Sequence record: PZ871096.1
Source: a phage
Direction: 5' to 3' (one strand)
DNA: 50,355 nucleotides
Made by a program: the position numbers and the translations under genes. Shown in pieces: positions 21,075 to 48,273 of this stretch (its first letter is position 1; every line of letters begins with the position of its first letter). A model generated the notes under the pieces. It was not told the DNA's origin. It saw nothing but the letters and a program-made list of their open reading frames with translations, and made no database searches.

Positions 21075-21117
21075 ACTATACACGATCCGACAAGCGGCGT
21101 TTAGCAAAAAGTGCTAC
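21075..21117 (-). promoter_or_regulatory. conserved-box promoter (variant box GTAGCACTTTTTGCTAAAC, 18-nt spacer, TATAGT)
   Basis: box at 21099-21117, -10-like hexamer at 21075-21080 (minus strand). Confidence 0.5.
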
Positions 21118-21237
21118 TTGTTATTTTTTGTTTTCCGGTGTTATCGGATTTAAGACGGCGTAAATTTAGCGCAAATTTTAGCCAACATAAGAACAATAAA
21201 TAATCAATAAAATAGATATATACATATAAAATCAATA

Positions 21238-21400
21238 GTTTATTTATTTATGTATGTATATTTGTTTTTTCTTGTTATCTGTGTTTCTTGTGGTTTTGGT
21301 TGTTTGTGGTGATTTTTCTTTCTGAGTATCTGTATGTGCCATCATTCATGTGTATGTATATAATCCGGCGTATCTGAGAGAACAGGGGAACAAGAAAAAT
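21238..21400. repeat. AT-rich TG/TA-repeat element, copy A (homologous to 40737-40990)
   Basis: shared blocks TTATTTATTTAT, GTATGTATAT, TTGTTATCT, TTGTGGTTTTGGT, GTATCTGTATGTG, GGGAACAAGAAAAA. Confidence 0.6.
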
Positions 21401-21486
21401 AACACATATTAATCATTAACTTACGCGTCAAATTTGTTTTGTTGCCATCTGAGAACGTTTAGAAAACAGAAAAAACAAAACAACTA

Positions 21487-21514
21487 TTGACTAAATCAAC
21501 CAAATGGCTACAAT
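21487..21514 (+). promoter_or_regulatory. sigma70-type promoter for exonuclease-ERF-SSB operon
   Basis: TTGACT (21487-21492), 16-nt spacer, TACAAT (21509-21514); SD GAGGAG; ATG 21545. Confidence 0.55.
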
Positions 21515-21544
21515 GCACACACAAAGCAACGAGGAGCATTAAAG

Positions 21545-22600
21545 ATGAGTGATTTTAACGCCTATACTAGCGAAGAAATGAGCAATGAGCTTTATCATGA
21601 TCCTAACGCGTGGACGGCTGAATACGTCAGCGGTTCCAGCCTGGCGGAGATTTACAGCACTTGCCCGGCGTACTGGAAGTACAAGCCTCGCCAGGAAACT
21701 AAGGCACTTGTTTTCGGTACGCAGTCGCATACCAATTTTGAAAGCAAGGAGTTATTCGAAAAAACATATCGCCGCGCACCGTCGCAGGATGACTTTAAAG
21801 ATCTGATTACAAGCCAAACGGCGTTAGCTTCAAAGCTGAAATCTTTTGGCCTGAAAGGTACGACGGGTAAGCAATACCCTGAACTGCTGGAAATGCTGTA
21901 CAAGTGCGGTGAGGATCTCAATGTATGGTGGCTTATCGAAATGATGGCAGAATGCCAGGCCGCAGCGGACGGAGTGCAGTTAATCGACGCGAAAGATTAT
22001 GATGCCTGTGTAGCGATGCGGCGCGTACTTGAGGCAATACCTGAGCATAATGCTTGCATGAATAGCCCAACCGCGCAGCGTGAAATGTCAATATTCGGGA
22101 TCATCAATGGCGTAAAAGTTAAAGTGCGTCTTGATCACGTTGACGTAAACAAGGATGTAAAGGCCACAATCATTAACGGTTACGACGAAAAAGGACGACC
22201 GATTTATGAAGAAGTAATCTATCCAGAAGCTGTGATTATCACTGACTATAAAACAACGGTTAGCGCAAATCCGGTTGACTTCCAGCGCCTGGCTTACAAT
22301 CACGGCTATTATCTAAAAATGGCTTTGCAGCATGATTTATTTAAAAAGGCGTATCCAGACGAGGAAAGGCCAGTAATTGTGAGATTGCTTGCTCAGGAGA
22401 AGAAAGAGCCTTACTTGCCGCTCGCATTCCGCATGAACATTGAGCAATTGAAGATCGGGCGTATCCAGTACATGAGCGTGATCAACAAGTTCAACGTTTG
22501 CCAACAGTTAGATGAATGGCCTTCGTATGCAAACGGACAACCAGAAATTGATCTTGATACTCATGATTGGGTTCGTGCTCAATTCAGGCAGTATCTATGA
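21545..22600 (+). CDS. PD-(D/E)XK exonuclease (RecE / exonuclease VIII-like)
   Basis: 351 aa; D...DYKT-type nuclease motif (AVIITDYKTT); followed by an annealing protein gene. Confidence 0.6.
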   Translation: MSDFNAYTSEEMSNELYHDPNAWTAEYVSGSSLAEIYSTCPAYWKYKPRQETKALVFGTQSHTNFESKELFEKTYRRAPSQDDFKDLITSQTALASKLKSFGLKGTTGKQYPELLEMLYKCGEDLNVWWLIEMMAECQAAADGVQLIDAKDYDACVAMRRVLEAIPEHNACMNSPTAQREMSIFGIINGVKVKVRLDHVDVNKDVKATIINGYDEKGRPIYEEVIYPEAVIITDYKTTVSANPVDFQRLAYNHGYYLKMALQHDLFKKAYPDEERPVIVRLLAQEKKEPYLPLAFRMNIEQLKIGRIQYMSVINKFNVCQQLDEWPSYANGQPEIDLDTHDWVRAQFRQYL

Positions 22601-22674
22601 CAAACCAAACAAATAGCTAAACTTTTATAATGGTTGGTGATATAATTCGCCAACCAGATAACGGGAGAATGAAA

Positions 22675-23328
22675 ATGAAATTATCCGATCAGTTTGATAA
22701 GGTTTTGCCAGCATTGCACAAAGCGCGCAGCCTGTTTGTAAAGGTTAAAAAGGATCGCCAAAACAGCCATCTTAAAAACCGTTACGCTACGCTTGATTCA
22801 GTCCTGGATGCCATTACCCCAGCATTGATGGATAATGAGCTTATGATCATGCAGGACGGAGAAAGAATTGATGTAAGCACATTGCGAGTTGAAACTACCG
22901 TCATGCACGTTTCGGGCCAGTGGGTAAAATTCTACTTTGACATTCCGATCGTTAAAAACGATCCTCAAGGTGTAGGTTCTGCTTTCACATATGGACGTCG
23001 TTATTCTGCGGCTGCGGCCTTCGGATTAAGCCAGGCGGACGATGACGCACAAATCGCTGTCAAGACGGTAAACGACTGGAAGCGCGACATTGAAAAATGC
23101 GAAAGCGTAGGAGAATTGCAAGAAGTCCTTAAAAACGCGTGGAAGTCAAGCGACGCGGCAAGCAAGCAAGTAATCCGCGATCACTATGAGAAGCGCAAGG
23201 CTGAAATTGAGATAGGCGGCGCGCGCGGATTTAATCCGGCAAAACCGAAAGAAAACCTAGCCAGCGACACCGTTGACACTCCAAATAGCGAGAAAGTAAA
23301 ATCACAAAGTATCACTGACTTTGAATAA
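22675..23328 (+). CDS. erf: ERF-family single-strand annealing protein
   Basis: ORF-track frame 22630-23328; ATG 22675 with GGGAG SD; N-terminal motif [20 protein letters not shown] typical of ERF. Confidence 0.65.
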
Positions 23329-23332
23329 TAAA

Positions 23333-23354
23333 CGGGGCGCTTGCGCCCCTTTTG
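23333..23354 (+). terminator. terminator-like hairpin between erf and ssb
   Basis: GGGGCG-cttg-CGCCCC followed by TTTT. Confidence 0.5.
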
Positions 23355-46939: not shown

Positions 46940-46979
46940 CACGAATTGCTAAACGCGGGGTTATCGGCCCCGCTATAAT
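46936..46979 (+). promoter_or_regulatory. conserved-box promoter (box variant ATAGCACGAATTGCTAAAC)
   Basis: hairpin GCGGGG...CCCCGC then TATAAT. Confidence 0.5.
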
Positions 46980-47009
46980 GCTCACATCAACAATCAAGAG
47001 GAAATCACA

Positions 47010-47390
47010 ATGGTTAACATCAGAAAAATTCGCGTCGGCACTAAATTCTTAGTTACTTACGCAATTCCAGATAGCGGAATGAAGAAGGGCCAGATTGTTA
47101 AGGTTGATAGCAAAAGATTCGGAATCCCTGGTATCAATGGCTATCTAATCAATAGAGATCTTGGATTCGACGGATTCGCTATCCGTGCGCTTGAGGGTAT
47201 TGTTGCCACGCTTAAACGAATCACTAATCATCGCGGCTGCCCAATCAAGACGATTAAAGCGCCAATAAATTACGGCAAACTGGATAATCGTCGAATCCGC
47301 CGCCTGGCGCGTAACGCGTTAAAATTCCGTGGCGTAGGCGATGATTTCTACTATGGATACAAGAGGATTGCGCGCAATGCTGGGAAATAA
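47010..47390 (+). CDS. hypothetical protein
   Basis: 126 aa ORF. Confidence 0.45.
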   Translation: MVNIRKIRVGTKFLVTYAIPDSGMKKGQIVKVDSKRFGIPGINGYLINRDLGFDGFAIRALEGIVATLKRITNHRGCPIKTIKAPINYGKLDNRRIRRLARNALKFRGVGDDFYYGYKRIARNAGK

Positions 47391-47489
47391 CAATAACGCA
47401 ACGAATCCTAAGCCACCTTTTGATTTTCATTCCGCAATGATTGCGGTATTATCAATGCTACTTTTTCTTTATAGCATGAGGGCGCTACT

Positions 47490-47738
47490 ATGGTTTTTAA
47501 CGCATTGAAACGACTGTTTAAGCCGGAATACCGGATCGTATTTTGCCGCGACTGTTCTACTTATCATGTGCAGCGACGCAGCTTAGGCGGCAATTGGCAC
47601 TATGTTACAGATGACTTTTTCGGCATCATTGCCACTGAATTTAAGTATTACAGTGATGCTTATATGTACGTGAAGAAGCGCCACCGCTTACGCAAGTGTC
47701 GTTTTTCCGTGCTGATTCACGTTAATGATTGTTACTGA
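47490..47738 (+). CDS. hypothetical Cys-containing protein
   Basis: 82 aa; SD GAGGG. Confidence 0.45.
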   Translation: MVFNALKRLFKPEYRIVFCRDCSTYHVQRRSLGGNWHYVTDDFFGIIATEFKYYSDAYMYVKKRHRLRKCRFSVLIHVNDCY

Positions 47739-47745
47739 GGTGAAA

Positions 47746-47928
47746 ATGAAAACTGGTATTATTATTCTTTTCCTGATCCTTTTCGGTAGCCATTTAACCA
47801 TTAACTATGAGGGCATTATGGCCTTTTGGGGCAACTTGATGATTTTTGCCGCTGGTTCAATTACTGGCTACTCTGACGGGAAAAAGGACGGCGTTCGCAA
47901 GATGCTGATGGGACTTAAACAAAAATAA
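47746..47928 (+). CDS. small membrane protein
   Basis: ORF-track frame 47725-47928; ATG 47746 with GAGG SD; hydrophobic N-terminal half. Confidence 0.45.
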   Translation: MKTGIIILFLILFGSHLTINYEGIMAFWGNLMIFAAGSITGYSDGKKDGVRKMLMGLKQK

Positions 47929-47939
47929 GGGGATCTGAA

Positions 47940-48230
47940 ATGGCAAACAAAACTTACCGCAAACTACTGGTTAACGCTTTTGAAAACATTGCGCAGTGTA
48001 ACAAGTGGAACGACTCTAAACACTCGCCAGTCACAATGAAGCGCGCCGGATTCAAAAATGCTCGTTCATGGGCGCGAGCTTTCGCAGCTTGCTATATGCC
48101 GGATGGTGGACTAGGAGTGATGAACGATTTCTTGATCAACATGATAGAGGAAGCGGCGCGAGAGGATCGACCGCTGACACAGCGAGATTTTGACGACTTC
48201 GCGCGCGATGAGCTTTACTATCTGAGCTAA
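47940..48230 (+). CDS. hypothetical protein
   Basis: 96 aa ORF. Confidence 0.45.
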   Translation: MANKTYRKLLVNAFENIAQCNKWNDSKHSPVTMKRAGFKNARSWARAFAACYMPDGGLGVMNDFLINMIEEAAREDRPLTQRDFDDFARDELYYLS

Positions 48231-48273
48231 TAGCACTTTTTGTTAAAACTTCCGCAAGGGCATTTGATAAAGT
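48230..48273 (+). promoter_or_regulatory. conserved-box promoter
   Basis: ATAGCACTTTTTGTTAAAAC, hairpin AAGGGCA...TGCCCTT, TAAAGT at fixed offset. Confidence 0.45.

Follow-up and report, generated by a model that had tools for sequence, protein, structure and literature searches.

A repeated promoter-like box of a T1-like coliphage matches the MarA/SoxS/Rob binding site in the arrangement of class II promoters

The class II MarA/SoxS/Rob (RamA) promoters of Enterobacteriaceae, among them micF, nfo, fumC and lpxC P2, have in common with the phage element discussed here an asymmetric 20-bp site of the form GCAC...YAAA, the marbox, placed forward at about -41. The consensus of this site has been quoted as AYNGCACNNWNNRYYAAAYN (PMC2064960) and, from chromatin immunoprecipitation sequencing (ChIP-seq), as GCAHWWWWTGYYAAA (PMC6900184). 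In class II promoters the forward site overlaps the -35 region and is clustered near -41, with micF at -41.5 (PMC12052159, PMC8811837, PMC10268841, PMC9638938), and a canonical -10 element and start site are accompanied by no recognisable -35 element (PMC10268841). In this study, we analyzed a 50,355-nt stretch of phage DNA (sequence record PZ871096.1; the window, meaning the whole stretch), which belongs to a T1-like coliphage (Drexlerviridae, Tempevirinae, Warwickvirus) and in which a 20-bp box recurs in gene sense on both strands. Judged by its sequence, we read this box as a consensus marbox, that is, a site for MarA, SoxS or Rob matching GCAHWWWWTGYYAAA at 15 of 15 positions.

The box itself is already published, with its function left open. 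The 2024 re-annotation of phage TLS described a 21-nt direct repeat, aaATAGCACnnnTTGnTAAAA, in 18 intergenic copies (DR1-18) whose orientation follows transcription and which precede start codons by about 76 nt, and noted the same repeat in T1, Rtp and Rogue1; it found three sigma70-like promoters only and no polymerase or sigma factor gene. As possible functions its authors named stoperators, enhancer sites or UP elements, and they counted the role of the repeat among the questions still open (PMC11447400). The window box is the same element as this TLS/T1 repeat: it reads aaATAGCACnnnTTGnTAAAA, is intergenic and gene-sense, and has an ATG 73–81 nt from the box start. The fixed 18-nt distance to a hexamer, the CA start, the covariation of a hairpin in the spacer and the marbox identity are absent from the TLS paper and are reported here (PMC11447400). 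The marbox reading was not met in the literature searched, and no link between the marbox and T1-like phages was found in the searchable literature, whose coverage is partial so that prior publication is possible.

Each module is taken here as the 20-bp box, a variable spacer and a -10-like hexamer, listed from the box to the predicted +1; +1 is throughout predicted from the position of the hexamer. The original prediction, made by a model from the letters of the window, had counted 16 gene-sense copies, and all of them were recovered at their coordinates. The box ATAGCACTTTTTGTTAAAAC gave 16 matches in the window at three or fewer mismatches against 0.01 expected, and a looser box core returned all 16 gene-sense copies plus five copies in the late region, at 2093(+), 6736(-), 10489(-), 16404(+) and 26013(+). 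The predicted spacing of 18 nt between box and hexamer stands for 14 of the 16 copies; the other two (21117- and 43582+) have 17 nt and none has the 19 nt that had also been mentioned. The earlier tally of hexamers was slightly off, and our recount gives CATAAT five times, TATAGT four times, TATAAT twice and TAAAAT, TATTAT, TATATT, TACATT and TAAAGT once each. The predicted Shine-Dalgarno sequence and ATG downstream were found with the start codon 73–81 nt from the box start in 15 of 16 copies, the copy at 42244 departing from this pattern by its long leader. As predicted, no canonical -35 hexamer lies 16–18 bp from the hexamer, and the reported tie between stop codon and box is real: 15 of the 16 copies have the stop codon of an upstream open frame in or adjoining the box, ten through the TAG of the box (positions 2–4) and five through a TAA at -2/-1. 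At 27575 and 40453 the upstream frame that ends at the box is probably no real gene.

Scanning the window with the published marbox pattern AYNGCACNNWNNRYYAAAY gave 18 hits at one mismatch or less against 1.2 expected, and GCAHWWWWTGYYAAA gave 23 hits against 2.3 expected, 14 of which are perfect (15/15). The positions left free by the scan follow the degeneracy of the marbox, with W at position 9 in 98%, W at position 10 in 100% and Y at position 14 in 95%. The sole systematic departure is an A in place of Y at position 19, and micF also has A there. In the E. coli micF promoter sequence, the marbox ACAGCACTGAATGTCAAAAC is followed after 18 nt by TAGAAT, and 15 of its 20 bases, including the terminal AAAAC, are identical with the phage box in the same frame and with the same spacer. 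In nfo the marbox is followed after 18 nt by TATCAT, and fumC has a perfect marbox with an ambiguous gap to the hexamer (17–19 nt). The 18-nt gap of micF and nfo is that of the phage modules, which also share with class II promoters the lack of a usable -35 element and the canonical -10 element and start.

Orientation and position agree as well. GCAC is distal and AAA proximal to the core promoter in 16 of 16 modules, a convention that was checked on the real micF sequence and against published descriptions (PMC8811837, PMC12052159). Relative to the predicted +1, at the CA 7 nt after the hexamer, the phage box occupies -50 to -31 with its centre at -40.5, and AAAACn sits at the -35 position of the modules. 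Every defining feature of a class II marbox promoter that can be read from sequence is present in the modules. The original prediction had called them a non-canonical promoter class, a description that we abandon, as the box sequence, its orientation, its position near -41 and the 18-nt gap all match well-known E. coli promoters of the class II marbox type, micF and nfo among them. The phage differs from its host in degree and in what it adds. Its marboxes are near-identical, of consensus strength and number 16–20 in a 50-kb genome; those of the host are degenerate and scattered. Beyond the host class II design, the phage has fixed flanks (ATA..., ...AAAAC), a leader that is conserved and, in the spacer, an RNA hairpin.

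To place the module in related phages, IMG/VR was scanned by pattern; the loci lie on about 25 contigs of 41–52 kb, including T1, TLS and Rtp, and were pooled with duplicates removed. Conservation in T1-like genomes, which had been proposed as a check, was borne out: the module is kept in T1, TLS, Rtp, a Klebsiella phage and the approximately 25 IMG/VR contigs. The pattern nAnnnT occurs exactly 18 nt after the box in 78% of 401 distinct contexts, and at other offsets in about 4%. A position profile built from 243 contexts with distinct spacers consists of the box at -52 to -31, an information-free spacer at -30 to -15, a G at -14 in 84%, a hexamer T/C-A-T-A-A/G-T with T-12, A-11, T-10 and T-7, a C at -1 in 73% and an A at +1 in 84%, exactly 7 nt after the hexamer. 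Downstream of +1 follows an A/C-rich leader (ATCGAAAC..., AUCGAAAC...) and then a Shine-Dalgarno sequence about 14 nt in. In its anatomy, this profile is that of a sigma70 promoter dependent on its -10 region, in which something else replaces the -35. A full TG extended -10 is present in about 40% of modules. The original prediction had proposed that these are the main early/middle promoters, read by host RNA polymerase through the -10 hexamer with a box-bound protein in place of the -35, and this is very probably so; we are confident that the gene-sense modules, to judge from their pattern, are promoters of this architecture. A sigma54 promoter (TGGCAC-N5-TTGCW) was considered and rejected, as the box has TAGCAC-TTT-TTG(C/T), with AG for GG and 8 bp instead of 10.

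The Klebsiella phage, whose helicase is 63% identical, has 17 marboxes, 15 of which belong to full modules with spacer and leader unchanged. A Vibrio relative has no modules, and neither does a Salmonella Skatevirus at similar distance; as both lack it, the module is a trait of the Drexlerviridae lineage, and the contrast says nothing on the factor that reads it.

UP elements are A/T-rich sites for the alpha-subunit C-terminal domains of RNA polymerase at -59 to -38, with no G/C-specific core. The box could be an enhancer of this kind that needs no dedicated activator, as suggested in the TLS paper (PMC11447400), and its TTTTTGTTAAAA stretch does resemble TWTTTTnnnAAA of the UP consensus. The phage box at -50 to -31, however, lies about 8 bp too far downstream for UP subsites, its invariant G4, C5, A6 and C7 are not UP-like, and about 40% of boxes carry CACGAATTGC (the GAA variant), which interrupts the T tract yet fits the N/W positions of the marbox. 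We consider an UP-like enhancer highly improbable.

A second proposal of the TLS authors is a repressor operator or stoperator (PMC11447400). The Cro/YdaS-like regulator of the phage could be its binder, and the promoters would then be factor-independent extended -10 promoters. This reading could draw on a partial dyad TAGCA-N5-TG(C/T)TA in the box, on a regulator gene that adjoins a box with the two promoters overlapping face to face, and on the G at -14 in 84%. The stoperators of phage L5, however, are not known to keep a fixed distance to a -10 hexamer. Conservation of the box is also asymmetric (C7 against T11, A1 against A17, and the AAAA tail), and dyad position 14 is C in only about 53%; a palindromic operator for a dimeric helix-turn-helix (HTH) protein fails on its two-fold symmetry, only TAGCA/TG(C/T)TA being symmetric. 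The two phages have the same box, yet the regulator of the window and T1 gp23 share 58% identity and differ at several places in the putative recognition helix. Most promoters of this kind would also be weak with neither a -35 element nor an activator. An operator is therefore very unlikely in our judgment. The annotated Cro-like regulator was likewise rejected as a binder of the box: its single HTH falls below Pfam thresholds, and its recognition helix differs from that of T1 where the box does not.

Phage promoters in which a conserved box replaces the -35 element are known. In T4 middle promoters (a MotA box and a sigma70 -10) and in the Mor- and C-dependent promoters of Mu, an activator and host sigma70 act together on an ordinary -10, as would be the case here. 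T4 and Mu use phage-encoded activators (MotA/AsiA, Mor and C) with other box sequences and positions, the MotA box lying at about -30, whereas the box of the window is the host activator's own site and no phage activator was found. A search with phmmer, with MarA, SoxS and the N-terminal domain of Rob as queries, found no AraC-like match among 890 six-frame open reading frames (ORFs) of the phage (best E=0.27), and Pfam found no AraC-type HTH in the regulator and ten other proteins large enough to contain one (at least 95 aa). As no AraC-family protein was detected in the phage, a host reader is likely. That the site is invariant across diverged phages (T1, TLS, Rtp and the Klebsiella phage) is also easier to reconcile with a conserved reader in the host than with a phage protein that co-evolves.

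It could still be that the phage encodes an activator with no detectable similarity to MarA, SoxS or Rob, a mimic or a product of convergence comparable to MotA of T4 or Mor of Mu. The early ORFs are for the most part small and lack annotation, the promoter at 40993 serves DUF7174-type genes of obscure role that are a possible source, and the box is more tightly conserved than host marboxes. Such an activator would have to account for a box that fits the host consensus, orientation, position and spacing simultaneously, it has escaped both phmmer and Pfam as far as an AraC-type HTH is concerned, and its site has stayed undiversified among subfamilies with about 60% protein identity, unlike promoters that co-evolve with a phage reader. 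We regard it as unlikely. With moderate confidence, we favor the reading that the activity of the modules depends on a host factor of the MarA/SoxS/Rob type. Among these, Rob is favored for being both constitutive and abundant, in contrast to MarA and SoxS, which are induced by stress and short-lived.

Beyond the sequence, geometry, conservation, covariation and strand bias shown here, we infer where transcription starts, which protein binds the box, that it activates and what the hairpin does, and we propose the following course of events. The first genes would be transcribed from the few canonical sigma70 promoters, such as the one at 40993–41021. Each module would then act as a sigma70 class II activator-dependent promoter with a marbox of consensus strength, on which a monomeric activator of the MarA/SoxS/Rob type would bind at about -41, with GCAC distal and YAAA proximal, and substitute for recognition of a -35 element. 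Sigma70 would contact (T)G-14 and, 18 bp downstream of the box, the hexamer; initiation would take place at the conserved CA, 7 nt past the hexamer. The mRNA so made would have an unstructured A/C-rich leader (AUCGAAAC...) with a Shine-Dalgarno sequence about 14 nt in. The reader of the box would be a host protein, most plausibly Rob, with MarA and SoxS adding to it under stress.

Several points weigh against this proposal. The phage box is tighter than the degenerate marbox consensus, with positions 3, 11, 12 and 19–20 nearly fixed; this excess of constraint may reflect another binder, or an optimal site combined with an ATAG that doubles as a stop codon. Position 19 is A and not Y. There is little MarA or SoxS in unstressed cells, and Rob needs inducers for most of its activity, so that host levels may fall short for about 16 promoters per genome copy. 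The roughly 40% of modules with a full TG extended -10 might fire with no activator at all. A phage activator with no recognizable similarity to AraC-family proteins could also exist, as the early ORFs mostly lack annotation and the scan covered those of at least 95 aa.

The second conserved feature of the modules is the hairpin. The inverted repeat that had been predicted in the spacer, with compensatory variation, is real and covaries, and 14 of the 16 window copies fold at -5.8 kcal/mol or lower, those at 27575 and 42244 being the exceptions. In the pooled set, folds of the interval -34 to +8 have a mean minimum free energy (MFE) of -11.3 kcal/mol compared with -5.7 kcal/mol after shuffling with the fixed positions left in place (p=5e-36). 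A perfect Watson-Crick run of 6 bp or more is found in 123 of 226 modules against 13.4 in shuffles, and one of 8 bp or more in 37 against 0.6. There are two main geometries, one with the stem within the spacer (-30 to -12), the other with about -24 to -15 pairing with -8 to -1 and the hexamer at the apex; pairing ends at +1. In the commonest register, two-sided changes occur at 7 of 8 pairs, and the covariation score is 0.64, where shuffles give 0.23 and slid registers no more than 0.21, in a subset selected for pairing, so that the diversity of pair types is its only informative part.

For this structure the original prediction had offered two ideas, cruciform DNA or an RNA formed in read-through transcripts. 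At positions unconstrained by the promoter, 71 of 689 internal pairs are G.U when the sense strand is folded, and 14 of 531 for the antisense strand (p=5e-8, composition balanced). The sense-minus-antisense MFE is -1.73 kcal/mol against -0.37 kcal/mol in a composition control, and mismatches within stems are G.T in 13 cases and A.C in 2. A cruciform needs both strands to fold, so wobble on the sense strand only points to RNA transcribed from upstream; of the two ideas the cruciform is disfavored and the RNA favored.

An alternative is that box and hairpin together are an RNA signal in polycistronic transcripts, for processing or for nut-like antitermination, with the hexamer incidental. Selection of the hairpin on the sense strand agrees with this, as do the gene-sense, intercistronic placement of the modules and a loose likeness of the box to the rrn boxA (GCUCUUUAACAA). 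The hexamer, G-14 and CA start, however, are each strongly conserved at exact promoter distances, and the module at 27575, which has neither an upstream co-directional transcript nor a hairpin, keeps its box, spacing and hexamer. Stems of 6–10 bp are too short for RNase III, and no Rfam family matches. We see only a slight chance that this alternative is correct.

In our reading of the modules as class II marbox promoters, the hairpin probably lies outside the promoter mechanism. The stems occupy the spacer and discriminator, the positions free of sequence constraint in a class II promoter. The hairpin would be a separate, overlaid signal that folds in the read-through RNA of the upstream gene, whose stop codon is in or adjoins the box, and it would protect or define the 3′ end of the upstream cistron and in some copies act as a weak terminator. 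As signs of termination, two window copies were flagged by a terminator scan and three T1 copies are annotated as rho-independent terminators. No selection for a U tract was seen after the spacer stems, which have no extra T enrichment compared with hairpin-less copies; spacer-type hairpins are followed by the AT-rich hexamer, and the commoner type that encloses the hexamer is followed by AUCGAAAC. A hairpin with this role should be missing from promoters that have no co-directional upstream gene; this is so in the window, where 27575 is stemless, but not clearly so in the pooled set (n=12, p=0.095), and the divergent copy of T1 has a long inverted repeat. In known systems, the intergenic stem-loops of T7, the repetitive extragenic palindromic (REP)-type 3′ hairpins and intrinsic terminators likewise have variable GC-rich stems directly after a stop codon, selected on the transcribed strand. 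Unlike those, the phage stems are embedded in the promoter of the next gene, between the activator site and +1, and mostly have no U tract.

It is an even question, in our assessment of these sequences, whether Drexlerviridae, a whole family of virulent phages, have wired nearly all of their early and middle genes to the host Mar/Sox/Rob stress-response activators through 16–20 consensus marboxes per genome in class II promoters. If they have, infection would both require and follow the host's state of antibiotic, oxidative or bile stress, and replicating phage DNA could titrate the regulators away from efflux and porin genes. The reading, if correct, would explain how early genes are expressed in phages that have hardly any canonical sigma70 promoter and lack both a polymerase and a sigma gene. 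It would also tie a very common coliphage family to the multidrug-efflux and porin regulon, including TolC, the TLS receptor, which is relevant to phage-antibiotic combinations, and would supply a natural set of consensus-strength marbox promoters. The class II marbox reading turns the open question of the TLS repeat into a testable one, with purified Rob, MarA or SoxS, with marA, soxS and rob deletions, and with salicylate, paraquat, dipyridyl or bile salts. A spacer that doubles as an RNA hairpin of the preceding cistron would amount to overlapping codes in a compact genome.

Phages MikeNSara, NorthRox and tonn are 94–97% identical to the window over 40–46 kb, and phage Kalemo has a helicase 100% identical to the one encoded here. 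The late structural genes occupy about 1–20 kb on the + strand, and replication genes and small early genes run in both directions from 20 to 50 kb. The leftmost gene-sense module (GTAGCACTTTTTGCTAAACG, 17 nt, TATAGT; 21068–21117, -) heads a leftward unit. The module at 27575–27625 (+; ATAGCATTTTTTGTTAAAAC, 18 nt, TATTAT) is predicted to drive the helicase gene 27651–29648 and is divergent from the regulator gene; it has no hairpin (MFE -1.9), is the sole promoter-like element in the 87-bp gap before the helicase gene and has no co-directional transcription upstream. Two modules on the + strand with consensus box, 18 nt and CATAAT follow, one upstream of a DNA methyltransferase gene (30064–30114) with a spacer hairpin at -30 to -11, the other (31135–31185) with a spacer hairpin GCCCGGC/GTCGGGC that the scan found terminator-like. 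The module at 34344–34394 (-; ATAGCATTTTTTGTTAAAAC, 18 nt, TATATT) has a spacer hairpin identical in sequence to that of the 31135 copy: the same GCCCGGCCTAGTGTCGGG stands at 31155–31173 (+) and 34356–34374 (-), on opposite strands 3 kb apart, which suggests a recent duplication or gene conversion between promoter copies.

The next four modules on the - strand all have an 18-nt spacer. At 36506–36556 the box ATAGCACTTTTTGACAAAAC and the hexamer TAAAAT, with a hairpin around the hexamer, stand upstream of a DNA helicase gene (34904–36484); at 37180–37230 a box ending in AAAAG is combined with the extended -10 TGgCATAAT and a spacer hairpin; at 39098–39148 a box ending in AAAAA and TGgTATAGT go with a long hairpin that encloses the hexamer (MFE -17.0); and at 40403–40453 a consensus box and TACATT go with weak structure (MFE -5.8). 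The remaining modules are on the + strand. The one at 41781–41831 (consensus box, 18 nt, TGgCATAAT) has the spacer hairpin GCCAGGC/GCCTGGC, and the TAG of its box is the stop codon of ORF 41512–41784. At 43582–43631 the box ATAGCACGAATTGTTAAAAC (GAA variant) is followed after 17 nt by TATAAT, with a hairpin enclosing the hexamer (MFE -17.1). The other four again have 18 nt: 45063–45113 (ATAGCACTTTTTGCAAAAAC, TATAGT) with a stem pairing -22 to -15 with -8 to -1, 45434–45484 (box ending in AAAAT, TATAGT) with a stem enclosing the hexamer, 46936–46986 (ATAGCACGAATTGCTAAACG, with no mismatch to AYNGCACNNWNNRYYAAAYN, TATAAT) with a spacer hairpin, and 48230–48280 (consensus box, TGaTAAAGT) with a 10-bp stem enclosing the hexamer (MFE -17.7).

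The module at 42244–42294 (+; consensus box, 18 nt, CATAAT) has no hairpin and is followed by a leader of about 195 nt up to the ATG at 42490. This leader (42294–42489) was considered as a structured RNA, which its folding does not support (z=+1.4). It is GC-rich, and parts of it match 172 phage records, including phages outside Drexlerviridae, 21 of which cover most of the leader; the opposite strand carries a 158-aa ORF (42264–42740, -). The region may be a mobile or moron-like insert.

The copies in the late region differ from these. At 10439–10489 (-) there is a full module (18 nt, TGaTAGATT) that runs against the late genes, antisense to them, and is aimed at the bidirectional terminator 10408–10426; on the gene strand, its reversed box adjoins a Shine-Dalgarno sequence and ATG (10504). 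The arrangement recurs in T1, at 18850(-), where it follows the gene for the major tail protein and GATTTTACAG..AATGAA is likewise kept downstream. This module predicts an antisense RNA of about 40 nt. The copy at 26013–26032 (+) is degenerate (B site TAAT) and reversed relative to the tail-fibre gene, in the layout terminator, about 35 nt, reversed box, Shine-Dalgarno sequence and ATG; it shares with 10489(-) the common order of terminator, about 40 nt, reversed box, Shine-Dalgarno sequence and ATG. A perfect marbox at 6717–6736 (-), reversed relative to the late genes, stands between a stop codon and the terminator 6742–6763, with TATTAG at the hexamer position (no T at -7). The forward copy at 2093–2112 (+), without a promoter-type hexamer, is followed after 10 nt by the terminator 2124–2145, and the degenerate copy ACAGCACAAAAGGTTAAAAG at 16404–16423 (+) lies 33 nt past the terminator 16354–16370 with an ATG directly after it. 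The copies 2093+, 6736-, 16404+ and 26013+ are thus each within about 45 nt of an intrinsic terminator and have no hexamer at +18. T1 counterparts of late-region copies are found at 8362+, 15086- and 34902+. These copies are candidates for a roadblock, a decoy or a remnant. The class I geometry (reverse, at -62/-72) was considered for the reversed late copies but does not fit, as the boxes adjoin a Shine-Dalgarno sequence and ATG.

Canonical sigma70 sites are not enriched in the window, where 28, 28 and 29 were found against 35, 24 and 31 expected from shuffled sequence. The Rfam scan of the whole window gave 0 matches at the gathering threshold, and a tRNA scan of the window gave nothing. The best canonical sigma70 site, a predicted promoter TTGACA-17-GATAAT at 40993–41021 (+), is placed in a 49-bp divergent gap and would drive the DUF7174 gene 41051–41515, and the start codon of the divergent - strand gene, at 41001, overlaps its -35 hexamer. 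By its sequence this promoter is a likely box-independent immediate-early start. The phage "transcriptional regulator" (27087–27563, -), with a Cro/YdaS-like single HTH and not of the AraC type, has a predicted promoter TTTAAA-17-TATAAT at 27642–27614 (-) that overlaps the 27575 module face to face. In the gap 27564–27650, the hexamer TATTAT of the helicase module (27613–27618, +) overlaps the regulator -10 TATAAT (27619–27614, -), and the marbox of the module would fall at about +13 to +32 of the predicted regulator transcript. From this layout, the two look like a mutually exclusive pair and a possible switch.

Next to the module at 21117(-) lies a very AT-rich, non-coding stretch of about 430 bp (21118–21545) with TGTATGTATATA-like and T-rich repeats. 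It is flanked by that module and by the canonical promoter TTGACT-16-TACAAT (21487–21514) of the exonuclease VIII gene, and is a candidate for a replication origin or another cis site.

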